Of a stretch of 64,000 nt of DNA, positions 20,672 through 55,671 are shown piece after piece; the first letter of the stretch is position 1; each line of letters opens with the position of its first letter. Origin of the DNA: Dehalococcoidia bacterium (GTDB taxonomy: Bacteria > Chloroflexota > Dehalococcoidia > Bin125); the NCBI GenBank assembly GCA_963663895.2, contig CAXXRD010000001.1:480001-544000 (forward strand). The letters are read 5' to 3'. The position numbers and the translations under genes were made by a program. The notes beneath the pieces were generated by a model that worked only from the letters and a program-made list of their open reading frames with translations, did not search any database and had not been told where the DNA came from.

Positions 20672-21203
20672 GCGCGGCCTGCCGCCGATTCTGCCCCGGT
20701 CGATCCGCGTCCTCATCCTCGGCTCCCTGCCGAGCGACGCCTCCATCGCCAAGCAGCAGTACTACGGGCACCCGCAAAACCACTTCTGGCGCGTGCTGGA
20801 GGCGTGCGGGGCCGTCGAATCGGCCGCCGCGCCCTATGCGAAGCGGGTCCGCGACCTCAAGGCGCGCGGGATCGCCGTCTGGGACCTCTACGCCGCCGCG
20901 GACCGCGAGGGCAGCGGCGACGACAAGATCCGCGATCCGATCCCGAACGCGATCGAGGCGCTGTGGGAGGAGCGGGGACCCTTCCCCGTCCTGCTGAACG
21001 GCCGGCGCCGGCACGAGTGGCGCCGGCACTTCGGCGCCCTGCCGGTCGAGCCGATCGAGCTGCCCTCCACCAGCCCCCGGCCGCTGCACTGGAACACCCC
21101 CGCGGACCGCGCCGCGGCAGTCGCCGAGTGGCGCAGCGCGCTGCGCGCCGCCCTGGGGACCAGCAGGCCCCGTCCGCGCCCGGGAAACGCAGCCAGGAGC
21201 TAA
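20664..21203 (+). CDS. UDG superfamily family 6 (hypoxanthine/deoxyinosine DNA glycosylase-like)
   Basis: LILGSLPS..S...QYYGHPQNHFW, WD, LNG, LPSTSP motifs. Confidence 0.85.
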   Translation: MAKRGLPPILPRSIRVLILGSLPSDASIAKQQYYGHPQNHFWRVLEACGAVESAAAPYAKRVRDLKARGIAVWDLYAAADREGSGDDKIRDPIPNAIEALWEERGPFPVLLNGRRRHEWRRHFGALPVEPIELPSTSPRPLHWNTPADRAAAVAEWRSALRAALGTSRPRPRPGNAARS

Positions 21204-21216
21204 GCACCGTGAACCC

Positions 21217-21247
21217 TGGGCCTACACGTACTGTACTGCGAACTTTC
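21217..21247. repeat. 31-bp sequence identical to 55545-55575 (att-like site 1)
   Basis: TGGGCCTACACGTACTGTACTGCGAACTTTC is exact at both places; similarity continues to CTATAG (21268/55596). Confidence 0.9.
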
Positions 21248-21313
21248 CGCTGGGCAGTCAATCTATAGGGTAAGGGGTGGCCCCAGCCGATCAGCCCCGC
21301 GAGCAGGACAGCC

Positions 21314-21390
21314 TCGCCTGAGCACTGCGCAGGCCACCCGAATCAGTTCGCAGTACAGTCCGTCACGACCGGAAATCGTGAGCTTACACG
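21314..21390. repeat. ~75-bp direct repeat copy A (partner 24908-24978), containing an inverted copy of ACGTACTGTACTGCGAACT and att-like site 2
   Basis: TCGCCTGAGCACTGC...GTTCGCAGTACAGTCCGTCACG..CGGAAATCGTGAGC.TAC.CG is shared; 21345-21363 is the inverted repeat of 21226-21244 (18/19). Confidence 0.88.
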
Positions 21391-21449
21391 TTACCCAACT
21401 CAGCCAATCTCTCCGATCTCAGCCTCCGGCCCATCTGAGGCGCTCAGGG

Positions 21450-22019
21450 TCAACGCAGCGCCGTCGAGCTGATCCGTTTAAGAACCTCGGCCTTGACCAT
21501 CGAGATCGCTTCATCGAGCAGTTGATCAAGGTATTCGATGCTGCCCTGCTGGGCAGGTTCAGCCGTAAGAGCGACACCGAAGTGTGACCTCGGGAGCGGG
21601 TTAGCGGCTGCCTTCACATGCAAGTGAGGCAAGTTGCTGTACCCGCTCCCGTCCCCTACCGAATGCCAATGGAACGCTACTATCTCCTTCGGTTCCTCGT
21701 CTCGGCCGCGATGCTGCAGCAGATGGAAGTACACGCTCTGGAGCCTGAACTCTTGCGCATCGTGGCGTGTGGGTCTCCAACGCTCACCGTATTGACAAAC
21801 TAGAGAATCCACACTTGACGGGAAGCTCCAGCGTCGAACATCGCTTGTAAGTTGTTCGCCAGATCTGACCGCGAGAACGAACTCCTCGGACGTCGATTTG
21901 GGCTCGACATAGAGGTGTGCATCAGAGACTACTTGGAGCCGTTTCCTGATCCCACTCCGGCGCTCTTGCCTTAGGGACTGTGCGTCGCAAACTACGTTCG
22001 GCACTGCAGGGCCAGTCAA
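21450..22019 (-). CDS. Uncharacterised protein with FHWH...PHLHV histidine motif, directly downstream of the MTase
   Basis: ORF abuts the MTase stop (22020); same atypical, lower-GC composition; start uncertain. Confidence 0.65.
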   Translation of the reverse strand: MTGPAVPNVVCDAQSLRQERRSGIRKRLQVVSDAHLYVEPKSTSEEFVLAVRSGEQLTSDVRRWSFPSSVDSLVCQYGERWRPTRHDAQEFRLQSVYFHLLQHRGRDEEPKEIVAFHWHSVGDGSGYSNLPHLHVKAAANPLPRSHFGVALTAEPAQQGSIEYLDQLLDEAISMVKAEVLKRISSTALR

Positions 22020-24650
22020 CTATCCGAAGGGTGTCCCAGGCTTCAGCAGCGCGATCTCTTCGTCAGACAGATCGTACAACTTGCGCAAAACCAAATCGTC
22101 AAGGGCCGTCTCTGCGCTCAGATCAACATCCTCCGACGCGCCCAACAATTTCCGTACGGAGGCGATCACGCTTCGGACGTGAACTTGTGGAACACGCGCC
22201 AAGTCAGGAATCGGCAGGCGGCGGAGTAGCGCGACCCCGATCTTGTTGTACCCGTCGCGGTACTTTCTTGAGTTCATATCTAGGAACCAGGCCGACGCAC
22301 TCGAATTCAACACCGCCGCGAGCACCAGCAACAGCTCCTCGTCCATGGGATCGGTTCGCGCACGAACGAACGGAGAGTGGCTGACTACCCATCGCCCGTC
22401 GGTATCGAGTCCGAACCGGGGAACCAGAGAGACCTCCGGAACTACGACTTTCGGCGCAAGCATTTCATACGGTGGACGAGGCCTCGTCGGCCGCCACCAG
22501 TCCGTGCTCGCTGATGCCACTGACTTGCGTGAGGAGAGCGTAGCCCTGTTCCCGCTGAGCCGATTCCACGTCACCGGAAACTCCGCTTCGAGTTGCGACT
22601 CGGTCACCGCCTCGCCATCAATGTAGGGGTAGAACACCCGTCTGCCCGTCTCCTCCGGCAGCACGAAGCGACCGATCATCCTGTCAGGAAGAAGAGGTCT
22701 GTACAGTGCTTCCTCACCGGGGGGCACGTCGTCAGAGTCGATCACGAAGACTTCGTCGGCACCCGTGATAGCACCCTGTCGCACCACCGCAACATCGTTG
22801 AGCCGCGGCATAGCTTCTAGTCTCGCGAGGAGACTGGACTCTTCAGGCGTCGCAACCGACCACGTCGGGCGTGCGAGCATCTCCTGTGGAGCTTCAAAAA
22901 TGAAGTACGACGAAGTTCGGCGGTGGTTCCCATCCAAGAAGTCCTCGAGCGCCAGTCCAACATCGCGCTGGCACCGAATCAGCGCGACCGGCGGTTCGTT
23001 CTGATCAGGAGCCCCCTTCCGTTGAACAACGAGTAAAGCGATGTAGACATCTGCCCTGAAGACCCGGATCGCCGAGAGGTCTGCAATCACATGGACCCAG
23101 GCTTCCTCCCGAATCCAGTGGCGGAGCGACCTGAGATTGTCTGAAGTCAGCAGGGGTTGAGGCACTACGAAGAAGCCATACCCACCCGGCCGCAACGCCC
23201 GGATCGAAAACACCAAGAAGGCCAAGTACGTGTCTAGCTTGCCCTTCCCTGCAGTACCAACATGGCCTGCAATAGCCTGTCTCACATCCTCCGGCTGAGA
23301 CTCGGTTCGGACGAATGGCGGGTTCGCCATTACCACATCAAATGTGAGGTCGCGTTGCGCTGACTCCGAGGCAAATCTCCGAATAGAGTCACCAAACTGC
23401 ACAGGAACATCTGTCGGCAATTCGCCGCAAGCAGCGAGATACAAGAGCGCTAGAGAGAGCCGGGATGCCGCAACTGCGTTCTCATCCACATCTATGCCCA
23501 ACAGCGACTCCAACGCAGCTCTCGCATCTTCCGCAGGATCGCGCCGGCTAGCGAGCAATTTCTGCTCCATAACAGCCCGCAGAAACACACCTGATCCGCA
23601 CGCAGGATCTGCGACAAGGGCGTCGAGAAAATGATCTCCTGGCAGCTGACGCCGAAGGTATTTTGCAAAGAAGCTTGCAATATACTGAGGCGTATATATT
23701 CCCCCCAATTGTTTATTCCACGACTCTTCATGAGTTGACGGAAACAGAGAAAACTGAATGGACTCCTCGTGTTGCATCACCGCTACATACCGCTCATAGA
23801 TCTTGCTCAGTGCATGCCTGGACATAACTGAGAAGTCATACTGGTACGGAACTGCGTCGTGACGATAGAAGGCATCAATGAGTGCCTTGCGGCTGCCTTT
23901 AGACAGCTGATCAAATGATGCGAGGGCAGCATGGTCGAACAAATCTCGGGAGACTCGTGACTCCGGCCGGTCTCCTAGAGACTGTGAGATGGCATCTGCG
24001 ATGCTCAGGTTGTGATCTGAAATAAGATCGCTCAAGGAGCTCGCGGGAGCTTCGCTTGTTGTTCTCGAATAGAAATCTTCCACTGCCCGCGCAAGGATGA
24101 TGGCGTTGAAGAGGGCGGAAACCGACGTAGAGATGGCGGCTGGTCCGAGTTCAAGGCGGAGAATCTTCCGCCAAGTAGATATCGTGTCGAGAAGCGCACC
24201 ATCAAGGGAAAGGAGGTTCGGATTGGGCGCCTGCCCGACGGCTTCGTCGAATACCTGCCTAGTGAGAGCCGACTCGTCAGCTTCACTGAATCTGGTAGTT
24301 AGCGTCGGCCCCGGCGGATCAGTGCGGTTGTAAAAGTACTGGATCGACTCCTGATCAATCCAGACGTGCCAATCGACCAAGCTATTGTAGGAAAGCCCAA
24401 GGATGCCCAATACCTCGTCAGCACGGATGTCTTCCAACCGCCGATGCGAAGGCAGAAATGACAGCATCGCCGCGTTGTCCAAGCCTTGCTCGACAATGAG
24501 ATTGGCCGCGGGTAGAGCGTTCGGAACTTCGACGAAATCGTTCGGACGCCAGCCGAAGTAACGAGAGAAGCTCTCGGCAGCCTCACGCTTCCGGGCAGCC
24601 GACTCAACAGGATCAGTCAGAGCCTGGACCAAGTCGCTGGCAGGGCTCAT
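22020..24650 (-). CDS. Large gamma-class N6-adenine DNA methyltransferase (Eco57I/TaqI-like, type IIG-like architecture)
   Basis: GIYTPQYI, motif I DPACGSG.FL, motif IV NPPF, TaqI-C-like TRD (QGAITGAD, LAAVLNS, LRRLPIP, LYDLS.EEI). Confidence 0.88.
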   Translation of the reverse strand: MSPASDLVQALTDPVESAARKREAAESFSRYFGWRPNDFVEVPNALPAANLIVEQGLDNAAMLSFLPSHRRLEDIRADEVLGILGLSYNSLVDWHVWIDQESIQYFYNRTDPPGPTLTTRFSEADESALTRQVFDEAVGQAPNPNLLSLDGALLDTISTWRKILRLELGPAAISTSVSALFNAIILARAVEDFYSRTTSEAPASSLSDLISDHNLSIADAISQSLGDRPESRVSRDLFDHAALASFDQLSKGSRKALIDAFYRHDAVPYQYDFSVMSRHALSKIYERYVAVMQHEESIQFSLFPSTHEESWNKQLGGIYTPQYIASFFAKYLRRQLPGDHFLDALVADPACGSGVFLRAVMEQKLLASRRDPAEDARAALESLLGIDVDENAVAASRLSLALLYLAACGELPTDVPVQFGDSIRRFASESAQRDLTFDVVMANPPFVRTESQPEDVRQAIAGHVGTAGKGKLDTYLAFLVFSIRALRPGGYGFFVVPQPLLTSDNLRSLRHWIREEAWVHVIADLSAIRVFRADVYIALLVVQRKGAPDQNEPPVALIRCQRDVGLALEDFLDGNHRRTSSYFIFEAPQEMLARPTWSVATPEESSLLARLEAMPRLNDVAVVRQGAITGADEVFVIDSDDVPPGEEALYRPLLPDRMIGRFVLPEETGRRVFYPYIDGEAVTESQLEAEFPVTWNRLSGNRATLSSRKSVASASTDWWRPTRPRPPYEMLAPKVVVPEVSLVPRFGLDTDGRWVVSHSPFVRARTDPMDEELLLVLAAVLNSSASAWFLDMNSRKYRDGYNKIGVALLRRLPIPDLARVPQVHVRSVIASVRKLLGASEDVDLSAETALDDLVLRKLYDLSDEEIALLKPGTPFG

Positions 24651-24907
24651 GAGCGGTCTCCCGAATCTCTCACGCTATCAGACTACGAAAACAGCCAAAT
24701 AGCAATGCGAGTAGGTGCCTCATCAACTTTGGGGGGCCCTCATCACCCGAGCAGCCGTCCCTTGTAAACACCCTGACCCACCTGCGTCCTTTCCGCCGAC
24801 ACCGTCAGTGTTATGGGTACGACAGCTCGTCCATCGTCCTCATCTGGAACGGCTCCGCCGATACCAAGTCCTTTGCCGTCTTACGACGACCTCTTCGGGT
24901 CGAGCTG

Positions 24908-24978
24908 TCGCCTGAGCACTGCCGTGCGAATTGGTTCGCAGTACAGTCCGTCACGGACGGAAATCGTGAGCCTACGCG
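24908..24978. repeat. Direct repeat copy B (partner 21314-21390), att-like site 3
   Basis: TCGCCTGAGCACTGCCGTGCGAATTGGTTCGCAGTACAGTCCGTCACGGACGGAAATCGTGAGCCTACGCG. Confidence 0.88.
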
Positions 24979-25025
24979 GATTCAAAATCCGTGCTCTCCG
25001 ACAGCATCACAGTCACGGGATATGC

Positions 25026-25050
25026 GGAAGCGGATGTCGCATCCGCCTCC
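25026..25050 (-). terminator. Possible terminator hairpin after the minus-strand hydrolase operon
   Basis: GCGGATG-TCG-CATCCGC stem ~25 bp past the stop at 25075; no strong U-tract. Confidence 0.4.
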
Positions 25051-25074
25051 CAAATCCGCTACGCCTTGTGCTGA

Positions 25075-25929
25075 CTAAGCCGCGTGCGCCCGCAAGAACT
25101 CCCGGATCGCGTCGATCGTGCCGCGCAGCTTCGCCGGCGAGCGGCAGTCGACATCCAGGCACTCGGCCCGGGGAGCAAGCTCGCAGATGCGGCGGGAGAT
25201 GCCGGTCGGGTGGAAGGGATCGCTGCCGGGCAGGACCAGCAATGGGGCCGGGCACGTCTTGAGCCACTCTTCGGTCACGGAGAACAGCGGCTCGTCCGGC
25301 GGCCAGATCCCGGCGACGAAGTCCCCGATCAGGGCGATGTACTCCGCGTCGCTCATCGCCAGGATCTGGGCGCGGAAGGCGGGGTCGTCATGGATGCGGC
25401 GCTGGAAGGGGCCGGCGGCGTTGTTCTCGACGAACCAGACGCCGGTCATGGCGGCCTCGACGACCGCCTCCACGCCCCTGGTCCGCGCGAGGGCGAGCGT
25501 GGGGGCGAACATATCTTGGAACACTTGGAGCGAGGTCGAGGCGTCGACGCCGACGGGATCCTGACAGACCGCCGCGCTGATCCGCCCGGGCGCCGCCTGG
25601 ATGATGCGGAGGTTGTAGGCGACGCCGATGCATCCGCCCATCACATGCGCCCGCTCGATCCCCAGATCGTCCAGGACGGCGAGCTGGTCGCCGGCGGTGA
25701 GGTCGTAGCTGAAGGCGGCGGCGGGCGCCGGGCTTTGGCCGGCATGGCGCTGGTCCATGCCGATCACCATGAACTCATCGGCGAAGTCGCGGATGGGGTT
25801 GACGGCGCTGTTGGGCCAGAAGGCGATCTCGCTGTTGACGCCGCCGGGCGCGAACAGCAGCAGGGGATAGCCCCGGCCAAAGACCTCGTAGTGGATGGTG
25901 GCCCCGTCGGGCCGCTGTACCTCCGGCAT
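25075..25929 (-). CDS. Alpha/beta hydrolase with Cys in the nucleophile elbow
   Basis: IHYEV.G.GYPLLL, MDQR.AG.S, G-G-C-I-G elbow, PG.D..H. Confidence 0.85.
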   Translation of the reverse strand: MPEVQRPDGATIHYEVFGRGYPLLLFAPGGVNSEIAFWPNSAVNPIRDFADEFMVIGMDQRHAGQSPAPAAAFSYDLTAGDQLAVLDDLGIERAHVMGGCIGVAYNLRIIQAAPGRISAAVCQDPVGVDASTSLQVFQDMFAPTLALARTRGVEAVVEAAMTGVWFVENNAAGPFQRRIHDDPAFRAQILAMSDAEYIALIGDFVAGIWPPDEPLFSVTEEWLKTCPAPLLVLPGSDPFHPTGISRRICELAPRAECLDVDCRSPAKLRGTIDAIREFLRAHAA

Positions 25930-25945
25930 GCGTCTCTCCGATCCT

Positions 25946-27544
25946 CTAGTTGATCCGGCGCCCGTCCGCCCCGGATTCCTGCCAGCGTGTCTCGCGCAGC
26001 TCGAACTTCTTGAGCTTACCGGTCGCCGTGCGCGGGAGGGCGGCAGCGAACTCGACGCGGGTCGGCGCCTTGAAATGGGCCATGCGGTCGCGGCAGTGGG
26101 CGATGATCTCCTCGGCGGTGGCAGCCGCCCCCTCCCGCAACACGACCACGGCGAGCGGCGTCTCGCCCCAGCGCTCCGAGGGCACGCCGATCACGGCCGC
26201 CTCAAGAACGGCGGGGTGCCCGTACAGCACGTCCTCCACCTCGATCGAGGAGACATTCTCGCCCCCGGTGATGATCATGTCCTTGGCGCGGTCGACGAGG
26301 TTGATGTAGCCGTGCGCATCCACGGTCGCGAGATCGCCGGTGTGGAACCAGCCGTCGACGATGACCTTGGCCGTCTCCTCCGGTTGCTCCCAGTAGCCCT
26401 TGAAGACGACGTTGGATCGCGCGATCACCTCGCCGATCGCGGCATCGTCGGCCGGCACGTCGTTGCCGTCCGCATCGACGACGCGGACCTGCACCCCGAT
26501 GATGTCGTGCCCGGCGCGGACCTTGATGCGGCGGGCGCCATCGTCGTCGACGCCCAGGTAGGGCTTGACCTCGGCCAAGGTGAGCAAGGGCGAGGTCTCC
26601 GTCAGCCCGTAGCCCTGGACGAACTCCCAGCCGAGCTCCGTCTCCAGGCGCTCGATGAATCGCAGCGGTGGCGGCGCGCCCGCGACCACGAAGCGGGGCT
26701 TGGTGGTGACGTGGTATTGGCCGCGGTCGGGATAGTCGAGGATCGCCGCCAGCACGGCGGGCGCCATGCAGGCGAAAGTGATGCCTTCATCCTGCAGCAG
26801 CCGGTAGATCGCCTGCGGGTCGACCTTGCGCAGGACGACGTGCCGCGCGCCCACGGCCGTCAGGGCGAAGGGCCCGCCCCAGCCGTTGGCGTGGAACATG
26901 GGCAGCGTCCACATCTCCACGTCCTCGTTGCCGATGCGGCTGTGGACGAGGAAGTTGTAGGTGTTGAGATAGATGTTGCGATGGGTCAGCATCACTCCCT
27001 TGGGGCGGGCCGTGGTTCCCGACGTGTAGTTGATGCTGTAGAGATCGTTCTCCTCCAAACCGGGATCGGGCGGGGCAGTCGCCGGCCGGCCGGCGATCAG
27101 GTCCTCCCAGTCCCGCCAGCCGTCCGTCAGCGGCGCATCGGCGAAGCGCGCGACGATGAAATGCTCGACCGTGGGAAGCTTGGGCCGCAGATCGTCGATC
27201 ACAGCGGTGTAGTCGGAGTCGACCAGCATCACCTTGGCGCCGACGTGATTGATGATGTAGTCGAAATCATCCGCAATCAGGCGATAGTTCATCGGCACGA
27301 TCACGGCGCCGATCGACGCCACCCCGTAAAACGCCTCAAGGAAATGATGGCTGTTGGGACTGAGAATGCCGACGCGATCGCCCTTGCCCACGCCCAACGC
27401 CGCCAGTCCGTGGCCGAGCTGGTTCGCGCGCGCCCCGAACTCCGCATAGGTCCAGCGCTCGGCGCCGTCGGCGACTGCTTCACTGGGGCCGTAGAGCTTG
27501 ACCGCGCGATTGATGAAGTCGCTGACGAGCAGGGGTACTTCCAC
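25946..27544 (-). CDS. Acyl-CoA synthetase (AMP-binding, fatty-acid CoA ligase type)
   Basis: YTSGTTARPKG, GYGLTET, WFHTGD, DRAKDMIITGGEN, PRTATGK. Confidence 0.93.
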   Translation of the reverse strand: MEVPLLVSDFINRAVKLYGPSEAVADGAERWTYAEFGARANQLGHGLAALGVGKGDRVGILSPNSHHFLEAFYGVASIGAVIVPMNYRLIADDFDYIINHVGAKVMLVDSDYTAVIDDLRPKLPTVEHFIVARFADAPLTDGWRDWEDLIAGRPATAPPDPGLEENDLYSINYTSGTTARPKGVMLTHRNIYLNTYNFLVHSRIGNEDVEMWTLPMFHANGWGGPFALTAVGARHVVLRKVDPQAIYRLLQDEGITFACMAPAVLAAILDYPDRGQYHVTTKPRFVVAGAPPPLRFIERLETELGWEFVQGYGLTETSPLLTLAEVKPYLGVDDDGARRIKVRAGHDIIGVQVRVVDADGNDVPADDAAIGEVIARSNVVFKGYWEQPEETAKVIVDGWFHTGDLATVDAHGYINLVDRAKDMIITGGENVSSIEVEDVLYGHPAVLEAAVIGVPSERWGETPLAVVVLREGAAATAEEIIAHCRDRMAHFKAPTRVEFAAALPRTATGKLKKFELRETRWQESGADGRRIN

Positions 27545-27572
27545 CGTCTCACCTCCACAGGTTGCGAGAATA

Positions 27573-28058
27573 TTACCGTGATCGCGGCGATCCGTTGCTC
27601 TCGGCGGCGGCGACCGCGGCGGCGACGGCAGCGGCGGGCGCGTCGACGCGGATCAGGGGATCGTCGCCGGAACCGTCGTCGACGGTCCAGGTGCCGAGGC
27701 CGACGACCGGGCGCCCGAACTGCAGCGCGAAGGCGATCTCGCTGAGCGTGCCGTAGGATCCGTCGATCGCGATCATGGCGTCGCCGGCGCGTGCCACGAG
27801 GGCGTTCCGCGCCACGCCGAGCCCCGTGGGAATCGCGAACTCCACGTAGGGATTCGCCGCCGCCTCCTCGTCGCCGGGCAGGATGCCGATCGTGTGGCCG
27901 CGCTCGGCGCGCGCGCCGCGGCAGGCCGCCTCCATCACGCCCCCCAACCCGCCGCAGACGAGCGTGTGGCCCCCACGTGCGATCTCCCGGCCGACCGCTT
28001 CCGCCAGCGCCAGCGCGGGCGGAGCAGGCTCCCTTGCCCCCACCACCGCGATGCGCAT
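27573..28058 (-). CDS. LOG/TIGR00725-family nucleotide-binding protein
   Basis: MRIAVVG, CGGLGGVMEA, IGILPG, ARN, GSYGTLSEIA. Confidence 0.88.
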   Translation of the reverse strand: MRIAVVGAREPAPPALALAEAVGREIARGGHTLVCGGLGGVMEAACRGARAERGHTIGILPGDEEAAANPYVEFAIPTGLGVARNALVARAGDAMIAIDGSYGTLSEIAFALQFGRPVVGLGTWTVDDGSGDDPLIRVDAPAAAVAAAVAAAESNGSPRSR

Positions 28059-46258: not shown

Positions 46259-47494
46259 ATGAGCGGCGTGCTGCGCGGCCTCCGCGTGATCGAGGGCTCC
46301 GCCTTCGTCGCCGCGCCCAGCGCCGGCATGACGCTGGCGCAGCTCGGCGCCGAGGTGATCCGCTTCGATCCCGTCGGCGGCGGGCTGGATTATCGACGCT
46401 GGCCGCTCGGCGAGGGCGGCGCAAGTCTGTATTGGGCGGGTCTCAACAAAGGCAAGCGCTCCATCGCGATCGATTTGCGCCGCCCCGCCGGCCGGGAGCT
46501 CGCCGCCGCCCTCATCACGGCGCCCGGCGCCGGCGCCGGTCTCTTCCTCACCAACTTCCCCGCCAGCGGGTGGCTCGACTATGAGGCGCTGCGTGCAGGC
46601 AGGCCGGACCTGATCATGGTCAACATCCAGGGCAACCCGGACGGATCGTCGGAGGTCGACTACACGGTCAACCCGGCCACGGGCTTGCCGGCGCTCACGG
46701 GGCCAGCCGACGATCCAGCCCCGGTCAACCACGTGCTGCCCGCCTGGGATCTCCTGACCGGACAGGCGGCCGTGGTGGCCCTGCTCGCCGCCGAGCGACA
46801 GCGGCGGCAGACCGGCGAGGGGCAATTGGTGCAGATCGCCCTCTCCGATATCGCGCTGGGCGCGATGGGCGCCCTCGGGTTCCTGGCCGAGCACGAAGCC
46901 TCGGCCGAGATGCGACCCCGCTACGGCAACGACCTCTACGGCGCCTTCGGCCGCGACTTCGCGACCAAAGACGGCCGGCGAGTGATGATCGTCGCGATCA
47001 CGCCACGGCAGTGGGATGCGCTGGTGCGGGTCACGGGCATTGAGGAGAGCGCCGCCGCGATCGAGCGCGACCGGAGCCTCGATCTCAGCGACGCCGGTGA
47101 TCGCTTTCGCGCGACGGACGCCATCGCCGCCCTGCTCGCGCCCTGGTGCGCCGCCCGCACGCTGCCGGAGGTGCGCCGCGCGTTCAAGGAAGGAGGCGTG
47201 GCCTGGGGGCCCTATCAGACGATCCCCCAACTCCTGGCCGACGATCCCCGCTGTTCCACGGAAAACCCGCTGTTCGAGCTGGTCGACCAGCCCGGCATCG
47301 GGCCGACGCTCACGCCCGGGTCCCCCCTGGCGTGGAGCGGCATCCCTCGCGCCGCGCCCGCGCCCGCGCCCACGCTCGGCGCGGATACCGACGCGATCCT
47401 GCGCGAGGTGCTGCAACTGAGCGACGCGGCAGTGCGCCGTCTGCACGACGACGGCGTGGTCGCCGGCAGCGACCCGGTCACGGCTCATGGCTGA
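46259..47494 (+). CDS. mct: Mesaconyl-CoA C1-C4 CoA transferase (2-methylfumaryl-CoA isomerase)
   Basis: LRVIEGSAFVAAP..GMTLAQLGAEVIRFD..GGGLDY.RWP, VDYTVN, PVNHVLPAWD, RYGNDLYGAFGRDF, recalled as typical of Mct. Confidence 0.85.
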   Translation: MSGVLRGLRVIEGSAFVAAPSAGMTLAQLGAEVIRFDPVGGGLDYRRWPLGEGGASLYWAGLNKGKRSIAIDLRRPAGRELAAALITAPGAGAGLFLTNFPASGWLDYEALRAGRPDLIMVNIQGNPDGSSEVDYTVNPATGLPALTGPADDPAPVNHVLPAWDLLTGQAAVVALLAAERQRRQTGEGQLVQIALSDIALGAMGALGFLAEHEASAEMRPRYGNDLYGAFGRDFATKDGRRVMIVAITPRQWDALVRVTGIEESAAAIERDRSLDLSDAGDRFRATDAIAALLAPWCAARTLPEVRRAFKEGGVAWGPYQTIPQLLADDPRCSTENPLFELVDQPGIGPTLTPGSPLAWSGIPRAAPAPAPTLGADTDAILREVLQLSDAAVRRLHDDGVVAGSDPVTAHG

Positions 47495-48359
47495 CGACGA
47501 CCGTCAATCGAGCGGCCCCGCCGACTACCGCGATTGGATCGGCCGGGAATGCCTGGAGCACGATACCGTCGCGCTGCAGCCGGTCCGCCGTCTCCTCGCC
47601 ACGCTCGACGATACGGACACGCAGCTCAACCTCGGCGATCCGCTGCCGCCGCTGTGGCACTGGCTGTTCTTTCTTCCCGAGGCGCCGCAGCGGGAGCTGG
47701 GCGCGGACGGTCATCCGCCCCGGGGCGGCTTCCTGCCGTCCGTCCCGCTGCCGCGGCGGATGTGGGCGGGCGGGCGTCTCCGCTTCCACCGCGCCGTGCC
47801 CATCGGGACGCCCCTGCGCCGGCTGGGCCGCGTGGCGGAGATCGCCGAGAAGACGGGCCGGACGGGGCCCCTCGTCTTCGCGACGGTCGACTACCGGCTT
47901 CTCGACGGCGACGCCCTGTGCATCGAGGAGCGCCAAGAGATCGTCTATCGCGACTTCGGCCCGCCGCTGGCGCCGCCGGAGCCTGCGCCCGCGCCGCCGG
48001 AAGCGCCGGCGGGCGCCTGGAGCCGCGAGGTGACGCCCGACCCGCGCCTGCTCTTCCGCTACTCGGCGCTGACCTTCAACGCCCACCGCATCCACTACGA
48101 CCGCTCCTACACCGTGGAGCGGGAGGGCTACCCCGCTCTCGTCGTCCACGGCCCCCTGATCGCCACCTTGCTCTTGGATCTGGTGCGCCGCAACAGCGAC
48201 CGCGCCGTGGCGCAGTTCGACTACCGGGCCAAGGCGCCGATCTTCGACACGCATCCATTCCGGCTGCTGGGCGTTCCCCACGCAGGAGAGCGCGTCGCAT
48301 TGACCGCGATCCGCTGCGACGGAGCGGTCGCGATGTCGGCGGAGGCGCTCCTTCGCTGA
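47487..48359 (+). CDS. meh: Mesaconyl-C4-CoA hydratase / itaconyl-CoA hydratase (double hot-dog)
   Basis: LPPLWHW, LG.DGHP.RG.F, PRRMWAGG, LFRYSALTFNAHRIHYD, LVVHGPL; overlaps the end of mct. Confidence 0.82.
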   Translation: MADDDRQSSGPADYRDWIGRECLEHDTVALQPVRRLLATLDDTDTQLNLGDPLPPLWHWLFFLPEAPQRELGADGHPPRGGFLPSVPLPRRMWAGGRLRFHRAVPIGTPLRRLGRVAEIAEKTGRTGPLVFATVDYRLLDGDALCIEERQEIVYRDFGPPLAPPEPAPAPPEAPAGAWSREVTPDPRLLFRYSALTFNAHRIHYDRSYTVEREGYPALVVHGPLIATLLLDLVRRNSDRAVAQFDYRAKAPIFDTHPFRLLGVPHAGERVALTAIRCDGAVAMSAEALLR

Positions 48360-48499
48360 CGGGCGCGCGCAGGGCCCTGCGGCCTCCAGGGTCCTGCCCC
48401 GCCCCCAGATCCAGACGGCGTTCACCCAGGCAGGCGACCACAGGGCGCGGCTCGGCTAGCCTAGAAGAGATAGATCTCGGCCCGGAGAGAGGATGCGCT

Positions 48500-49159
48500 G
48501 TGCCGCCGGCCGGCATCCCAGAGATCGTCATCGATCGACTGCCGCTGTACGTGCGGGCATTGGCGCTGCTTGCGACCAACGGGCAGGAGATCATCAGCTC
48601 CAAGGAGCTGGGCGAAGAGCTGGGCGTGACGCCGGCCCAAATCCGCAAGGACCTCTCCTACTTCGGCCGTTTCGGCAAGCAGGGCAGCGGCTACAACGTC
48701 GCCCAGCTGCTCGACGAGCTGCGGGAGGTGTTGGGGCTCACGCAGCGCTGGTCCATGGCGCTCCTGGGCGTGGGGCGCCTGGGACGGGCCATCCTGAGCT
48801 ACGGCGGCTTCGGCTCCCAGCAGCTCCACGTCGCCAAGGCCTTCGACTCCGACCCGGCGGTCATCGGGACGGAGATCGGCGGCGTGGTGGTGGAGGACAT
48901 CAAGGATGTCGCGGCCAGCCTGGAGGCCCTGCCCGTCGAGATCGCCATCGTGGCCGTGCCGCCGCACGCGGCCCAGCCGGTGATCGACGCACTCGTCGCC
49001 GCCGGCGTGCGCGCCATCCTCAACTACGCGCCGATCGCCGTGCGCGTGCCCCCCGGCGTCCGCTGCCGCAACGTGGACCCCGTCGTCTACCTGCACGCCA
49101 TGACGTACCACTTGAAGAGCGACGCCCGCGGCGGCTCCGACGCAGCCCCGGTTTCTTAG
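48500..49159 (+). CDS. rex: Redox-sensing transcriptional repressor Rex
   Basis: RLPLY.R.L, ISS.EL, QIRKDLSYFG.FG..G.GY, G.GRLG.A, ILNYAP. Confidence 0.95.
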   Translation: MPPAGIPEIVIDRLPLYVRALALLATNGQEIISSKELGEELGVTPAQIRKDLSYFGRFGKQGSGYNVAQLLDELREVLGLTQRWSMALLGVGRLGRAILSYGGFGSQQLHVAKAFDSDPAVIGTEIGGVVVEDIKDVAASLEALPVEIAIVAVPPHAAQPVIDALVAAGVRAILNYAPIAVRVPPGVRCRNVDPVVYLHAMTYHLKSDARGGSDAAPVS

Positions 49160-49174
49160 GAAGTTTCTTAGGAA
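49151..49174. repeat. 12-bp tandem duplication GTTTCTTAGGAA x2
   Basis: Exact copies at 49151-49162 and 49163-49174, overlapping the rex stop codon. Confidence 0.8.
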
Positions 49175-49282
49175 AAAGCCGGGCAAGCTTCCGGACCCTA
49201 GCCGCAGGACGGGTCCAGCGTCGGGTAACTCAACCAGCAGCGCGGTTTACATGCGGACGAACAAGGGCTTCCAAGGCACGCG

Positions 49283-52159
49283 TCACGCTGGCTGATCGAT
49301 CTCGAAGACCTTCAGCACTTCGTCGCCGTAGTGGTTGATCACCTTGACGGCGATCTTGCCGCTCGCGGGAGGCGGGAAGGGGCGACTGCGCGTCGCGTAG
49401 AGCGACGCCCACGCTTCCTCGTCGATCTCAGCGCGGAGCGCGCGCTTGAGCCGATCGTAGGGCTCGTCCGCGCCGGTGAAGTAGGCGTGGCGCACGAAGA
49501 AGCTCTGCTCGTCGTAGTCGCTGTCGATGAACCAGCAGGCGATATCATCCGTGGAGGCGGATCGCACCGCGCCGGTGGTCGGATCGTAGACATCGACGCC
49601 GCGTATCTCGACGACGATCGCGCCATCCGGCGTTCGCTCGATCTCAACATCCGGCTCGCCGAAGACGGTGAAGAGGTTGCCGGCGCCGGTCTTCTTCAGT
49701 AGCTCGTCGCCCATCGCGAGGTCGGGGTTCATCCGCGCGAGCATCACCGGCAGCTTGCCGTACTTGCGTTCGCTCTCGGCGACGGCGAAGCTGTCATCCT
49801 CGCCGCTCCCAGCGCCCGGCGCGGAGGCGAACTCCTCTGTTTTCTCGCCGGCGCGGGCGTCGAAGGCGAAACCGCAGACCACGAGCAGGTCGTAGCCGAG
49901 GCCGCGGATCGCCGCCTTCGCCGCCCGCTCCACCTGCTCCGCGCCGACCGTCCCGTGCTCGGGGCCGATCGAGACGGCGACGCGCCGGGGCGTGCCGCCC
50001 TTGTCCTCGAACTCGCCCTCGGCGTGAATCCAGGGATCGCCCGCCAGCGGGTCGAGGCGCGAGAAGACGAGCCGCTCGTCACGCTTCGTATTCTGCACGC
50101 CGGCTTTGCCGAGATTCTCGATGATGGTGGCGGCGAAGTCCGGGCGCACTGGATCTCCCGTCGCCTCGCGCACCGCGGCGGGCACATCCTCGTCGGCGGC
50201 GATCATGCGGTGCGGCGAGAGGCTCTCGACGGTGAACGGGCCGGCGACGCGCACACGGCTGCTGTCCTCGTAGGGTTGGTCGTAGAGGATCTCGCTCTCC
50301 GAGTTGCGGGCGATCGACTCGTCGATCTCACGCTGGCGGGCGAGGCGCTGCTCCCACCACTGCTTGTGCGCCGCAGCGGCCGGGGCCGGCCACGCCTCGC
50401 CGGCCTTGCGGGGAACCTCCCACTCCTCCCAGGACTCGCCCAACGCATCGTTGAGCGCCGCGCGCAGCGGTTCGAGGCGCTCCTGGAAGCGCTCCCAGAT
50501 GTCGTCGATCTCCTCGTTGTTGGCGATGTCGCGCAGTTGGATGTGCGGCGCGCGCCTGTAGACGAAGCCCTGCCGTACGTCGCCCGAGGTCGGGCCGTCG
50601 CCGGCGGGCCGGCCGCTGACCTTCGCCTCCTGCGCGCGGCCCTCGGGCGTGTCGGCAAGGTGATAGTACGGATAGCGGGCCGCCATCAGCCGCGTGCGCG
50701 CCAGCGTCAGCGCCACCCGCGACGTGTCGACCGTGATCCAGCGCCGTCCCCACTGCTCGGCGACGTACGCCGTCGTGCCGCTGCCGCACGTCGGGTCGAG
50801 CACGAGGTCGCCGGGATCCGTCGCCATGAGAATGCAGCGCTCGATGACTTTGTTCGTGGTCTGAACGACATAGATCTTCGGGTCGTTGAAACCCCCGGAC
50901 TGCGTATCGAGCCACATGTTCGTGAGCGCCGTAGCTGCGAACGAGTCCCAGTACAGCTTGTGGTGGACCGAGCTTCCTGAACGGAGAATCTTGCCGGCGC
51001 GGACCAGCCGGTCACGGCCGACACGCTTTACTTTCCAGTGCTGGTTCGCAGGGGGCTCGAAGACACTCCCCTCAAAGACGAACTCTTGGTCACCGGAACT
51101 TCGACCCTCGGACAAGAGCGGCCCGCTCCGGAATATTCGTGCTCCATCCGGGAGTGCTCTGCGGCGCTGCCGCTCATCTCTCGTCATGCGACGTATCGTC
51201 CCGTCAGACAGCTCTAGCAGCACGTAATTCGGGTCGGTCATCGGAGGCTCTGGTTGTAGCTGGAATATCTTTCTGGTCTTCGCAAGAGAAGCGTCACGTG
51301 CATACCAAAGCACGTGGTCGGAGACGTTCCCGATCGCAGCCTGACCGAAGCCTCCGGTCTTCTGGAACGTGACACTTGACACGAAGCCGTCACTGCCGAA
51401 GACCTCATCCAGCAGTGAGCGGACGAGATGCACGTTCTCATCGCCGATCTGGACGAAGATGCTGCCCGTCTCGTTGAGCAGCTCGCGAGCAACCCTGAAG
51501 CGATCACGCAGGTAGGTAAGGTAGGAGTGGATGTGGAGTTTCCAGGTGTCGCGGAAGGCGCGCACCTGCTCGGGCTGCCGCGTCGTGTCCTCGGCGCGGC
51601 CGTCGCGCACGTCGCGCTTGCGGGTGGAGACCTGCCAGTTGGAGCCGAACTTGATGCCGTAGGGCGGGTCGATATAGATGCACTGGACCTTGCCGCGCAG
51701 CCCCTCCTTCTCCGCCAGCGAGGTCATGACCAACAGTGAGTCGCCGAGGATCATGCGGTTGGACCAGTGCTGGTCGTGCTCGTAGAACTCCAGCTTCCGC
51801 TCCAGGTCGTCCAAGCCGTTGAAGTCGGCGAAGAGGTCGAGCTGGTGCGCGCCCTGCGGATGGCCGTTGCGCCGCAGATCCTCAATGATCGCCTGCGGCT
51901 GGATCTTCTCCTGGATGTAGACGGGCACGACGGGTACAACGAGGTCGTCGCCGTCGAGATCATCCTTGCCCTGCCAGACGAGCTGGGGGTCGAGCGCGGG
52001 ATCGCGCGGCCAGCGCAAGTGGTCGCGGATGTCCTCCTCTTCGTCGGGGATGAACTCGCGCAGCTCCTCGGTGGGGATGTTCTTGCGGCTGTCCTCGTGC
52101 CGGATCGCGTCGATCCGGGTTCGCCTCTTGCTCTTCTTGCCGCGCCGCGGCGCCATCAT
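49283..52159 (-). CDS. mod: Type III restriction-modification methyltransferase (beta class)
   Basis: NRMILGDSL, YIDPPYG, central TRD, LDPTCGSGTT, C-terminal IAVKVINHYGDE. Confidence 0.92.
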   Translation of the reverse strand: MMAPRRGKKSKRRTRIDAIRHEDSRKNIPTEELREFIPDEEEDIRDHLRWPRDPALDPQLVWQGKDDLDGDDLVVPVVPVYIQEKIQPQAIIEDLRRNGHPQGAHQLDLFADFNGLDDLERKLEFYEHDQHWSNRMILGDSLLVMTSLAEKEGLRGKVQCIYIDPPYGIKFGSNWQVSTRKRDVRDGRAEDTTRQPEQVRAFRDTWKLHIHSYLTYLRDRFRVARELLNETGSIFVQIGDENVHLVRSLLDEVFGSDGFVSSVTFQKTGGFGQAAIGNVSDHVLWYARDASLAKTRKIFQLQPEPPMTDPNYVLLELSDGTIRRMTRDERQRRRALPDGARIFRSGPLLSEGRSSGDQEFVFEGSVFEPPANQHWKVKRVGRDRLVRAGKILRSGSSVHHKLYWDSFAATALTNMWLDTQSGGFNDPKIYVVQTTNKVIERCILMATDPGDLVLDPTCGSGTTAYVAEQWGRRWITVDTSRVALTLARTRLMAARYPYYHLADTPEGRAQEAKVSGRPAGDGPTSGDVRQGFVYRRAPHIQLRDIANNEEIDDIWERFQERLEPLRAALNDALGESWEEWEVPRKAGEAWPAPAAAAHKQWWEQRLARQREIDESIARNSESEILYDQPYEDSSRVRVAGPFTVESLSPHRMIAADEDVPAAVREATGDPVRPDFAATIIENLGKAGVQNTKRDERLVFSRLDPLAGDPWIHAEGEFEDKGGTPRRVAVSIGPEHGTVGAEQVERAAKAAIRGLGYDLLVVCGFAFDARAGEKTEEFASAPGAGSGEDDSFAVAESERKYGKLPVMLARMNPDLAMGDELLKKTGAGNLFTVFGEPDVEIERTPDGAIVVEIRGVDVYDPTTGAVRSASTDDIACWFIDSDYDEQSFFVRHAYFTGADEPYDRLKRALRAEIDEEAWASLYATRSRPFPPPASGKIAVKVINHYGDEVLKVFEIDQPA

Positions 52160-55100
52160 CAGCCTCCCGCCGCCTGCGCCGGCAGGTCGCGCTCCGCGAG
52201 CCAGGCGCGCAGCTCGGTTCGCAGGTTCCACGGGTCGCGCGCCTCGAAGAAGGCCCAGCGGCCCCAGCCGCCGGCGTTGTTGAGGGCGGGCGCCCAGAGC
52301 GTGCGCGCCGCTTCCGCCTTGGCCTGCTTCTCGGGCAAGTCGCGCCCGCTGACCTCCAGGACGACGTTGAGCAGGTCGCCGGGGCCATGCCCGTCCTCAA
52401 CGTGGGCGATGAAGTCCGGATAGTACCAGCGCTCAACGCCGGCGTGCGTGTAAGGAATGCGGAACTCGCAGCCGTGGTTCTTCACGTAGTGCAGGACTTC
52501 CGGCATCGTCTCCAGGGTTTCGGCGGTTTTCTGCTCCCAGCTGCCGGTGTCGGCGACGACGTGCGAGACGTGGCACTTGGCCTCGTTCGTAACCATCAGT
52601 GGGCGCGTGGTTTGCAAGTCGACGAAGCGCGAGGAGGCGCGTGGGTTGTAGTGGTTGACGATCGGCTTGAGCCGCTCGGCGCCCGGCCCGGAACGCGCGA
52701 TCGAACTGAAGATGCGCTCGGCGGCGCGGTCGCCGAGCCCGCCGACGAGCAGCAGTTGCGGATAGACGTTGTCCTTGAGAACAACGCACTCGCGCAGCCA
52801 CTGGCCTGCGATGCGCAGCAGCGACGGGAATGCCCAAAGTTGCCAGTTACCATCGCCATCGCGGAACTTCCGCTCCAGCACGCGACGCGCGAGGTGGAAG
52901 GCGATCGTCTGCTCCCGTTGCGCGCGCAGTGATTCCAACGTGTGCCTCTTGTCTTCGCCGATGATCGAGGAAACGTGCGTCTCCGTTGGCACGTCCTGTG
53001 TAGAGATGGCCATCCGCGAGTCCTCGCCGAACTGAGCCGTCAGCCGCTGCGGTGCGATGTCGTAGCGGTAGCCGGTGAGGTTCGGGAACGTGATCTCGGC
53101 GTGAGCGCGATCCGGCAGAGCGCGTACACGGGCCGGCTGCGGGCCGTCAATGACGCCCGTCGCCGCGCCGGAGGCGGGGATGAACGAGAAGGGAACGCCG
53201 TAGACCTCAGCGTACTCAGCGTCGAACATTCCCTCCGTGTTCGGCTCGTAGCTGCGTCGTCGCAGCGCCCGTCCAACGACCTGCTCGCAGAGCAATTGCG
53301 TGCCGAAAGCGCGGACGCCGAGAATGTGCGTGACGGTGTTCGCGTCCCAACCTTCGGTCAGCATCGAGACGGAGACCACGCACCGGATGCGCTCGCCGAG
53401 GCGTCCCGGCTTGCCGACGGTGTTCATGACCTCGCGCAGTAGATCTTCATCGCTCAGCGCCTCGGCATCGCGGCCGGGATAGCGGCGGCGGTACTCACGC
53501 TTGAACTCCTCGATCTCGCGCTTCGCGACACGCTTAAAGGTGCCGCTCATCTGCTCGCCGGACTCCAGCTCGGCGCTGTCGATCAGGATCGTGTTCGGCC
53601 GATCGCTCCAGCGGCCATCCATCGTATTGCTGAAAAGCGGCAGGGCGCCGTCGTGAACGTACGGCCCGGCACCGTCCCCGCGCTGCTCCTCCCAACCGCC
53701 CACGAAGTCGTAAATCAACTTCGAGACGTTGGTGTTGTTGCAAACAATGATGAAGACGGGCGGCGAGCCGTGCTCGCGGGCGGCCGCATCGGCTTCCCAG
53801 CGCTCGTGGGAACGCTTGTAGTTGTCGTAGAGCTGGCGCAATGCCGCTTCCAGAGCTTCGGGTAAGTGCGGCTCGCCGGAGACCGTATCGACCTTACGCC
53901 CGTGCTTCGGAAGACCGTCGCGGATCTGGATCCAGAGGTTGCGATAGACCGGCAGATCCGAAGTTCCCGCATCGTCGCTAACCGGTACGCGTGGAACCTT
54001 CACGATCCCGCTCTCGATCGCATCGATCAGTGAGAAGTCGGAGACCACCCACGGGAACAACGTGCCTTCGTCGTAGCCGGAGCCGCGCAGAAAGAACGGC
54101 GTCGCCGAGAGGTCATAGACAACCTTGATGCCAAGTCTCCGCTGCACCGCCTGTAAGCCGGTGAGCCAGACGCGGGCATCCTCATTGCGCTGCTTGGCCT
54201 CGCGACGTTCGTCGGCGCTCAGTCGCTGCTTCTTCGCCGCCTCGCGCCCGCGGTAGCAGTGGTGCGCCTCGTCGTTGAAGACGATGATCTGCCGCTTCGT
54301 CCCGAGGCCGAGCTCGCGACGCAGACGCATCACCACCTGCGCCTCCGTCTCGACGTGTCCGACGCCTATGGGCGCACCGCCCGCCTCAATGATCGCCTGA
54401 TGCAATTTGCCGGCGTCGCTCGTCTTGCGCGGTTGGAACTTGTGGTAGTTGGCTATATGAATCTTCGCCTGCCCGAGCCGATCGGTGAGATCGGGCGGCA
54501 CGATGTCGCGCTCCGCGTAGTAGTTCCCCGGATCGCTCGGCAGTAGTACGCGCAGCCGGTCGCGGATGGTGATGCCGGGCGTCACTACGAGGAAAGCGTC
54601 GGTGAAGCGCGCGTCGCGTGATGCGGCGTGCTTGTTCAGCGACTGCCACGCGATCAGCATCGCCATCAGCACCGTCTTGCCGGAACCGGTCGCCATCTTG
54701 AAAGCGATGCGGTAGAGACCGTCGTTCCACTCGCGCGCGTGATCCCGCAGTTGGTTCTCGATCCAACTGTCGCCATGCCGCGACGCGACCTCTGCTAGGT
54801 AGATCGCGGTCTCGGCGGCTTCGATCTGACAGAAGAAGAGCTTGCGCTCACGGTCCGGCGACTGCCAGTAGTCGAGCAGGCGACGGGTGGTGCGCGTCAC
54901 ACCGACATAGCCACCATTCCGCCAGCGCACCACGCGTTCACGCACACGGTTGACGAACTCGTTCTCCTCGATACGGTCCTGCGTCCACTCTGCGGCAAGG
55001 GCAAGTTGCCCTTGGCTTCGCTTTGAAGCCGGCACCGGCACGAAATACGAACTCGGCCGCCGACCTTCGACGATGTCGCTTGTGATCCCTTGGTCGTCGA

Positions 55101-55170
55101 AGCGGAAGTGACGGCTCGGCTCCACGAACGGTGAATTGAGGACCGGGTTCTCGATGACGACGTTCGGCAT
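52159..55170 (-). CDS. res: Type III restriction endonuclease (SF2 ATPase plus PD-(D/E)xK; BPTD_3080-like)
   Basis: MATGSGKT, DEAHH, LSATP, MLTEGWD, QVVGRALR, YYPDF...LEVSG; res precedes mod with a TGA/ATG overlap. Confidence 0.92.
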   Translation of the reverse strand: MPNVVIENPVLNSPFVEPSRHFRFDDQGITSDIVEGRRPSSYFVPVPASKRSQGQLALAAEWTQDRIEENEFVNRVRERVVRWRNGGYVGVTRTTRRLLDYWQSPDRERKLFFCQIEAAETAIYLAEVASRHGDSWIENQLRDHAREWNDGLYRIAFKMATGSGKTVLMAMLIAWQSLNKHAASRDARFTDAFLVVTPGITIRDRLRVLLPSDPGNYYAERDIVPPDLTDRLGQAKIHIANYHKFQPRKTSDAGKLHQAIIEAGGAPIGVGHVETEAQVVMRLRRELGLGTKRQIIVFNDEAHHCYRGREAAKKQRLSADERREAKQRNEDARVWLTGLQAVQRRLGIKVVYDLSATPFFLRGSGYDEGTLFPWVVSDFSLIDAIESGIVKVPRVPVSDDAGTSDLPVYRNLWIQIRDGLPKHGRKVDTVSGEPHLPEALEAALRQLYDNYKRSHERWEADAAAREHGSPPVFIIVCNNTNVSKLIYDFVGGWEEQRGDGAGPYVHDGALPLFSNTMDGRWSDRPNTILIDSAELESGEQMSGTFKRVAKREIEEFKREYRRRYPGRDAEALSDEDLLREVMNTVGKPGRLGERIRCVVSVSMLTEGWDANTVTHILGVRAFGTQLLCEQVVGRALRRRSYEPNTEGMFDAEYAEVYGVPFSFIPASGAATGVIDGPQPARVRALPDRAHAEITFPNLTGYRYDIAPQRLTAQFGEDSRMAISTQDVPTETHVSSIIGEDKRHTLESLRAQREQTIAFHLARRVLERKFRDGDGNWQLWAFPSLLRIAGQWLRECVVLKDNVYPQLLLVGGLGDRAAERIFSSIARSGPGAERLKPIVNHYNPRASSRFVDLQTTRPLMVTNEAKCHVSHVVADTGSWEQKTAETLETMPEVLHYVKNHGCEFRIPYTHAGVERWYYPDFIAHVEDGHGPGDLLNVVLEVSGRDLPEKQAKAEAARTLWAPALNNAGGWGRWAFFEARDPWNLRTELRAWLAERDLPAQAAGG

Positions 55171-55284
55171 CAGTACTCCCAGCACGTTTGCGCAGCCGTA
55201 GAGGCGAAGATTACAGCCTCATGGGAGAAGAGAGGGGTCCGAGGATCAGTACCCATCCACGAACTGGCCGAGTCAGCCGCTTGC

Positions 55285-55306
55285 GTCACCACTGCACAAA
55301 CATCGG
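55285..55306. repeat. Duplicated dnaN 3' end (att site), partner 63214-63235
   Basis: GTCACCACTGCACAAACATCGG vs GTCACCATTGAACAAACATCGG (20/22); both encode PMFVQW* on the minus strand. Confidence 0.9.
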
Positions 55307-55527
55307 GATCAATGTTCCAAAACGACCAAAAGGGCAGTGTGTCATTCGCCTTGATTGTTCGTCTCTCGGGATGAGGTGCTCGAACCGGCTCCCTTCTCGG
55401 CGATCGCGCCGTCTATGCGTCGACGCCGACTGACCATGTGCTCGGGCGAAGAGCTGGGCATTCGGCGTCTCGCGAGGCTACCGCTCTGAGCCCGGCCCGC
55501 CTGTGGATGAAGGGGAAAACGTCCACG

Positions 55528-55575
55528 GTTCGCGACCATCCCGGTGGGCCTACACGTACTGTACTGCGAACTTTC
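55528..55575. repeat. att-like site 4: 44-bp imperfect palindrome whose right arm is identical to site 1
   Basis: GTTCGC-GACCATCCCGGTGGG-CC-TACACGTACTGTACT-GCGAAC, with outer GTTCGC/GCGAAC and inner GTG/CAC symmetry around CC (55549-55550). Confidence 0.8.
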
Positions 55576-55671
55576 TCGTGGGCGGTCTCGCTATAGACCG
55601 CTCTGACCAAGCGGAGACTGGTGAAGACCATCCCTCCAAGACAGTACCCGCGCTTCGACACTTCCCAACGC

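Follow-up and report, generated by a model that had tools for sequence, protein, structure and literature searches.

The ssrA genomic islands of Dehalococcoides represent the closest known kind of element to the one described here, judged on the part of their published account that is considered (McMurdie et al. 2011, PMC3146451). According to that part, a CcrB-like serine recombinase, DsiB, sits at the island edge beside a tRNA-like 3' end, and the islands stack in tandem downstream of the target and carry varied cargo. The target is the T-loop of a single tmRNA gene, with a 20-bp direct repeat marking the boundaries. Many of these islands have no integration module, and the authors regard them as possible cis-mobilizable elements formed by accretion. 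This text addresses an array of short repeats and lower-GC modules at positions 21217-24978 of a 64,000-nt stretch of DNA from a Dehalococcoidia bacterium (assembly GCA_963663895.2, contig CAXXRD010000001.1, positions 480,001 to 544,000 of the forward strand), hereafter the window. The array was originally predicted to be a set of integron-like recombination-site cassettes delivering defence genes. It is most probably a decayed tandem array of islands of a large serine recombinase (LSR) family, placed at a tRNA-like pseudo-site and left without an enzyme of its own, and not a new integron-like system.

Like the ssrA islands, as far as the considered part of their account describes them, the present elements belong to Chloroflexota, have an LSR placed at the edge, form tandem islands, include modules without an integrase and carry varied cargo; DsiB is CcrB-like by that description and the present LSR by a sub-threshold score. 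Unlike them, the present family uses the acceptor/CCA ends of many tRNA genes and their mimics, with only about 9 nt shared, and its exchange site lies inside the recombinase reading frame, whose tail is swapped, a feature not mentioned in that part of PMC3146451. The window holds no tmRNA, and the present junctions lie at tRNA acceptor/CCA ends or a mimic of them, not in the T-loop of ssrA.

Other systems resemble the present one in part. The SCCmec Ccr, phiC31 and Bxb1 recombinases share the Resolvase, Recombinase and zinc-ribbon architecture, short sites and hybrid ends, but their targets differ, and the best NCBIfam matches of the present LSR, CcrB and XisF, lie below threshold by a wide margin, at 128.6 bits against an equivalog cut-off of 900. 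Integrons likewise contain gene-poor tandem modules, each ending in a similar structured site of about 75 bp; here, in contrast, an IntI tyrosine recombinase, a promoter-bearing attI and the fold logic of attC are all missing, the sites are half-sites of an LSR, and the integron-like label is not supported. The SSV-type integrases of archaeal fuselloviruses are tyrosine recombinases that carry attP inside the integrase gene, target a tRNA gene and change their own gene upon integration. The site within the recombinase's own reading frame and the tRNA target are common to both; the SSV-type gene, however, is split in the middle, whereas the serine recombinase here loses only about its last 14 codons. 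No integrase whose attP overlaps its stop-proximal codons is known to us, and the portion of the literature considered holds no description of an exchange site in the last codons of serine recombinases.

Repeats and half-sites of the window

The anatomy proposed for the array stands. Three co-oriented cores, right ends of about 75 bp in common and an inverted 18-nt arm all lie where they had been placed, far above chance. A repeat scan aligns the right ends at 21339-21390 and 24927-24978 over 52 nt with 88% identity (repeat family D1), preceded in both by an exact 15-mer at 21314-28 and 24908-22 (D17). The arm at 21226-21244 is complementary to 21345-21363 over 19 nt (95%, I3) and to 24934-24951 over 18 nt (94%, I8); each arm pattern has 2 matches in the window at up to 3 mismatches and 0 in 100 shuffles. 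The fourth core is identical to the first in 31 of 31 positions (21217-21247 and 55545-55575) and does lie between defence genes, a Type III mod/res pair on its left and a BrxL fragment on its right. The GC content is 0.54-0.62 over 21001-25000 and about 0.69-0.70 in both flanks, a hairpin TCACGA..TCGTGA is read directly at 21363-21381, and the two-gene module is free of recombinase genes, with no recombinase reading frame anywhere in 21217-24978. The island is flanked by genes for a DNA-deoxyinosine glycosylase-type protein and an alpha/beta hydrolase.

The left arm represents the tail of a protein. About 9 copies of the 18-nt arm exist in this genome (reference genome G000, 2.37 Mb in 5 contigs, C1-C5, 91% complete), and 6 of them have the longer left-arm form, several at the edges of lower-GC segments. 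These left-arm copies all read ...GG(P/S/T)x RTVLRTF xWxVxx in one frame and stop at the same codon, the copy at 21226 reading ...GGP and then TRTVLRTFRWAVxL-stop. By manual count, 7 of 9 substitutions among the 18-nt copies fall on third codon positions, and the stop lies at the identical codon in 25 of 39 copies of the tail, hereafter P'. The third-position substitutions and the fixed stop together mark the motif as coding sequence. At locus L059 an LSR reading frame closes, in frame, with the P' sequence (...VALDGPVLSTVKSGGPTRTVLRTFRWAVAL-stop), and clustering of the reading frames around P' copies yields one recurrent recombinase, an LSR with Resolvase, Recombinase and zinc-ribbon domains. 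The arms are 3'-end coding remnants of an LSR gene family, and the earlier guess of a large serine recombinase is borne out, with LSR genes linked to the sites in relatives. The possible readings of the motif that were set aside are a promoter or operator (the neighbouring genes have no consistent orientation), an independent small peptide gene (there is no consistent start codon) and the end of a host protein (translation of the genome in six frames gave no long real reading frame that closes in this way). RTVLRAF matches in 10 of 37 genomes of genus g6, from a pattern scan of the taxonomic family, are false positives, being twin-arginine signal peptides of M23 peptidases.

The right ends represent the other side of the same gene. 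Both carry GTT CGC AGT ACA GTC CGT CAC, that is VRSTVRH, which in the alignment to LSR 3' ends is the motif just before GGP. The left arm is the reverse complement of this coding motif, and therefore an inverted repeat arises. In right end 1, VRSTVRH (21346-66) is followed by a 10-nt insertion at about 21368-77, a degenerate block GTGAGCT and TACACGT. The 10-nt insertion is common to the window right ends and the natural P/P' sites of loci L097 and L058, and by our own reading L057 looks alike; the two natural sites have inverted arms of 14-18 nt, and the spacing with the insertion is unusual. The layout of P', cargo and P recurs at L055 (3.4 kb) and L058 (2.6 kb). Separately, a second type of P arm (...PVLSTVK...), seen when L099 is compared with L059, also has an insertion of about 10 nt before GGTGGGCC, so the one-turn insertion seems to have arisen more than once.

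The spread of P' was followed by a pattern scan of 185,579 species genomes (596 Gb) with 17 fixed bases, which returned 66 stretches. By our own arithmetic about 70 chance matches are expected for the pattern alone in 596 Gb, and therefore only stretches that pass the extended-peptide test were counted. The extended motif occurs at 34 loci, two of them at the same place, giving at least 33 distinct places; this is a lower bound, as some real copies (L094, L078) fail the peptide filter. The places are mostly in Dehalococcoidia, Tepidiformaceae or Chloroflexota records of metagenome-assembled genomes, with single cases in Gemmatimonadetes (a 4-kb contig), Caldilineaceae and Candidatus Spongiisociaceae (Actinomycetota, a 2.4-Mb record). 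The last of these, L108 (OZ243930.1), is nearly identical in nucleotides to the Chloroflexota copies and hints at transfer between phyla. A tRNA-Ser and a tRNA-Ala near two P' copies adjoin no P arm and are not used as evidence, and the copy beside tRNA-Met is a P arm on the opposite strand with an LSR remnant, not a sense-strand P'.

The recombinase family and its tRNA targets

The intact LSR at L105 has 577 amino acids and all three domains, and ends ...NSVRHGGP followed by unrelated residues. Used as a query, this protein gave 314 relatives among 399 candidate stretches, of which the best 80 loci were kept. All alignments to it stop at about residue 571, which is the GGP; the codons for ...GGP read (T)GGTGGGCC, and the residues past it are mostly translated antisense tRNA genes. 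ARAGORN predicts, at 42 of these 80 loci, a tRNA on the opposite strand overlapping the final 12-15 nt of the conserved LSR coding sequence; the end was located in 74 loci, 32 of them classed as other, and 6 are without a located end. Among the loci classed as other, a reading of the tails gives about 14 whose LSR gene continues into a convergent second LSR gene and about 5 with a sister tail ...WTVDRTVFEMWLGAL-stop. The targets comprise tRNAs for Met, Ile, Ala, Arg, Lys, Glu, Val and Leu; their 3' end ...GGCCCACCA, read on the complementary strand, gives the shared block TGGTGGGCC. Because the LSR coding sequence ends inside the 3' end of a tRNA on the opposite strand, the recombination site lies in the last codons of the enzyme. 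Members of this LSR family turn up in 39 of the 65 genomes from the same taxonomic family, a single genome having as many as 18 matches.

The same joint can be followed within one subtype. In G001, a genome of the same genus as the present one, an LSR of the L059 subtype ends ...STVKFGGP and continues GWIRT..., which is antisense tRNA-Met, and the attP-type and tRNA-type forms of one subtype diverge directly after GGTGGGCC. L059, G001 and the tRNA-Met remnant of the present genome all join LSR genes to the P arm, so that the full set of Resolvase, Recombinase and zinc-ribbon recombinase is linked to the sites in relatives, though not in the window. The hybrid ends share only a short core with the target, namely TGGTGGGCC, and the window junctions fall at the same block, of which the TGGGCC end at 21217-21222, holding the crossover, is the local form.

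Convergent pairs form an observation of their own. At L205:1501-4565 (G071) two convergent LSR genes of different subtypes overlap at their 3' ends, each tail being the antisense of the other's C-terminal motif (...VRNTVPSGGP followed by DWTKSRT..., and ...VLDFVQSGPP followed by LGTVLRT...). Two coding ends thus spell out one palindromic site, which both genes share, and the family genome table contains at least 12 coordinate pairs of this kind.

A mechanism may be proposed in which LSRs of this family integrate at the 3' ends of tRNA genes or at look-alike sites, with strand exchange within the block GGTGGGCC, inside the last codons of the recombinase gene. The integrated element would then begin with the orphaned tail P' (TRTVLRTFRWAVxL-stop), continue with cargo and close with a right end in which the LSR gene reads out into the antisense tRNA (P/B'). 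New elements would land beside the regenerated target and push older ones away, while old recombinase genes would erode to short P-arm stubs. The window would accordingly be read, in order, as a possible stub with P' (21203-21268), the two half-sites of a 162-bp mini element, a P stub (21346-21384), the methylase cargo, and a third P stub (24934-24972) abutting a pseudo-target that resembles a T-arm.

The enzyme family behind these relics is of more interest than the relics themselves. A puzzling repeat is explained, one that marks the edges of variable, low-GC and partly defence-laden segments in this genome and its relatives. A large recombinase family is exposed whose natural targets can be read from genomes, because each LSR reading frame runs into its tRNA target, and the many pairs of enzyme and site should be useful for the study of site choice by serine integrases and for genome engineering. 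The accretion model of the ssrA islands would extend beyond Dehalococcoides to many tRNA genes of Chloroflexota. The tail swap on integration raises the question of its effect on the enzyme.

Junctions, remnants and rival explanations

Comparison with G001 and G002, both of the same genus, places the module boundaries at recombination junctions, as had been predicted. In both, homology to the window breaks off at 21247 and resumes at 24978 (G001) or 24974 (G002); the interval is filled by 3.7 kb and 1.6 kb, respectively, of other DNA, a DndB/DpdB-like and a DUF4062 gene being part of the cargo. Over its first 1,656 bp the G001 insert shows 93% identity to C2:234354-235996 of the present genome, and the shared part starts with TGGGCC. 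At core 4 the homology with G001 stops at 55548, where G001 reads GTGGG and then other sequence; a segment peculiar to this genome begins on its left with site 4, and a search of G001 and G002 for the MacB block right of that site gave nothing. These breakpoints place the exchange point in TGGG(CC). The core positions of the original prediction are kept, and its crossover centre is moved, to within TGGG(CC), at the CC/CT centres or up to about 3 nt to their left; the central dinucleotide itself may be GG or CC. The tandem stacking of recombinase-less modules also fits the anatomy.

The recombinases left in the present genome are few. The only full LSR, at C3:2489-4048, is a distant one with a different ending (5.5e-22 in the search of the 65 genomes). 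An LSR C-terminal remnant (residues 414-571) adjoins tRNA-Met at C5:127447-127913, and a second (residues 482-543) lies at C1:568470-568655; on the evidence of these remnants, this genome once hosted the family. No intact cognate LSR is present in this assembly. The idea of mobilisation in trans in the present cell is therefore not sustained, as only the distant LSR and the two decayed family remnants are there to serve it, and the modules are probably immobile here today. Phage_integrase has 7 matches in the genome, none of them in the window. As a side observation, a tyrosine-recombinase fragment with an internal stop lies at C2:236579-236779, just past a P'-led module downstream of tRNA-Ala.

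The modules could instead be live non-autonomous cassettes, mobilised in trans by an LSR encoded elsewhere and piling up in tandem in the style of an integron. The recurrence of recombinase-less modules of P', cargo and P in the window, L055 and L058 would agree with this, as would the shared 10-nt insertion of the mini-type P arms (window, L097 and L058, with L057 alike by our own reading), the presence of one module at two loci in two genomes and the several contexts of the P' repeat among sequencing-run contigs. We nevertheless hold it to be unlikely: this genome has no intact family LSR, the P stubs of the window are altered inside the exchange block, promoter-plus-attI logic and IntI are missing, and no excision product is seen in contigs, which is a weak test. 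A hotspot refreshed by homologous recombination, acting through the glycosylase and hydrolase flanks and the shared 31-bp P', with the att remnants as bystanders, is an improbable alternative. In its favour, the flanks of the three genomes show 88-96% identity, the G001 insert holds a second, 80%-identical glycosylase 3' end, and no att-like site marks where the shared 1.66-kb module ends on the right; yet the breakpoints coincide with LSR junctions within a few bases at both sites, and the same module stands at a locus with unrelated flanks.

A REP/Y1 (HUH) element, offered earlier as an alternative, is very hard to credit, and so is a transposon of MITE or IS type bounded by terminal inverted repeats. 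A 19-nt inverted repeat with copies 100 nt apart and a hairpin near one end would suit such an element, but the arms are LSR coding remnants, there is no target-site duplication around 21226-21363 (the sequences just outside 21226 and 21363 do not repeat each other), Y1_Tnp has 0 matches in the genome, the arm has only about 9 copies there, and the 201-bp region has no match in plasmid or phage collections.

The decayed LSR array, which we prefer, has points against it as well. L059 is the sole in-frame case of a P' tail, its LSR gene is frameshifted further upstream, and no intact LSR ending in the exact P' tail was found among the loci. The P stubs of the window read GTGAGC(C/T) where the family has GGTGGGCC, and as they stand they may not be recombinable with a GGG-type left site. 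Module B has no recognisable P' after core 2, only TACACGT, and simple accretion accounts for only part of what is seen at its left edge. The right flank of core 3 gives no tRNA or other RNA by ARAGORN or Rfam, and its identity as a tRNA or known RNA was accordingly dropped. In G001, the 80%-identical copy of the glycosylase 3' end lies next to a transposase fragment, which indicates that homologous or other recombination also acts at this spot. The Logan contigs contain neither a joint of 21222 to 24973 nor a circle junction; they end at the P' repeat, and the test says little. Within the variable insert of G001, L031:4270-4623 is a reading frame joining a DUF772 (IS5-type) transposase fragment to the glycosylase 3'-end copy.

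A wider proposal, which joins the features of enzyme and sites, is tentative and on balance doubtful. It combines a self-sensing recombinase, whose exchange site in the last codons mimics the CCA end of a tRNA, with mini-site cassettes mobilised in trans. The excised or arrayed form would produce an LSR with the tail TRTVLRTFRWAVxL and the integrated form one whose tail is read from the antisense tRNA, and the contrast between the two tails could work as an inbuilt control of activity or direction. Recombinase-less mini-sites with a conserved insertion of one helical turn (10 nt) would stack beside tRNA-like sites. Between bacterial phyla such cassettes would spread genes of defence and metabolism, a proposal based on the near-identical P' in the chromosome-level record of Candidatus Spongiisociaceae (Actinomycetota).

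Cargo and neighbouring genes

The coordinates of the array and of the genes around it are collected in the table.

Features of the array and its surroundings in the window (position 1 is the first letter of the window)
Feature	Position	Strand	Remarks
Possible LSR 3'-end remnant	21203..21222	+	reads S-T-V-N-P-G-P, ends TGGGCC; short, only suggestive
P' half-site (orphaned LSR tail)	21223..21268	+	TRTVLRTFRWAVNL and stop at 21266-68
18-nt arm within P'	21226-43	+	ACGTACTGTACTGCGAAC
Module A, 162-bp gene-less mini element	21223..21384	+	P' half-site, spacer and P half-site
Right end 1, mini-type P half-site	21314..21391	+	alignment to LSR 3' ends and to L097/L058 mini-type sites; repeats D1, D17, I3
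Cargo gene, 189 aa	21450..22019	-	no Pfam, PADLOC or NCBIfam match
Cargo gene, N6-adenine DNA methyltransferase, 876 aa	22020..24650	-	Eco57I/N6_Mtase/TaqI_C; type II/IIG-like
Right end 2, mini-type P half-site	24908..24972	+	VRSTVRH codons 24934-54, 10-nt insertion, GTGAGCC ending at core 3
B' side of occupied site	24973..24995	+	TACGCGGATTCAAAATCCGTGC; hairpin resembling an antisense tRNA T-arm
Type III restriction-modification pair	49283..55185	-	mod 982 aa and res 1008 aa; left of core 4
Site 4	55526..55596	+	decayed P-arm remnant (V-R-D-H-P-G-G-P), block GGTGGGCC, P' tail TRTVLRTFSWAVSL and stop
Truncated BrxL, 156 aa	55672..56142	-	right of core 4; PADLOC BrxL 4.5e-37, profile positions 524-677 of 680

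The delivery of defence genes is not the rule of these modules. Elsewhere in the genome, the segments led by left-arm copies carry non-defence genes, including those for a DUF1697 protein, a hydrolase, a sodium:solute symporter, peptidases, a carbonic anhydrase, an mpaB-like oxygenase and a glyoxalase. In the array itself, the methyltransferase scores far under the PglX and MAD2 cut-offs. The 189-aa protein has 10 unnamed homologues, and its structural model (pLDDT 63.7) has no PDB match at E<=0.001. The 34 kb between cores 1 and 4 do not form a single island, as housekeeping-type genes lie inside and the synteny with G001 and G002 continues across 24978-28000 and 47000-49140.

Of BrxL (BREX Lon-like), only the last residues, about 155, are left, directly right of the P' copy, and the rest of any BREX system is gone; the fragment's match to NCBIfam TIGR02653 is below the cut-off. 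The distant LSR at C3:2489-4048 ends ...ITTVLRG-stop, lies between zinc-ribbon/coiled-coil and RNase H-like genes and looks resident rather than island-borne. On the left side of core 4, the Type III pair is absent at the same place in G001, and 49144-55275 of the window represents an insertion relative to that genome. A stretch of about 300 bp around the start of res (55071-55374) has two more copies in the region of G001 compared, at 84% and 78% identity.

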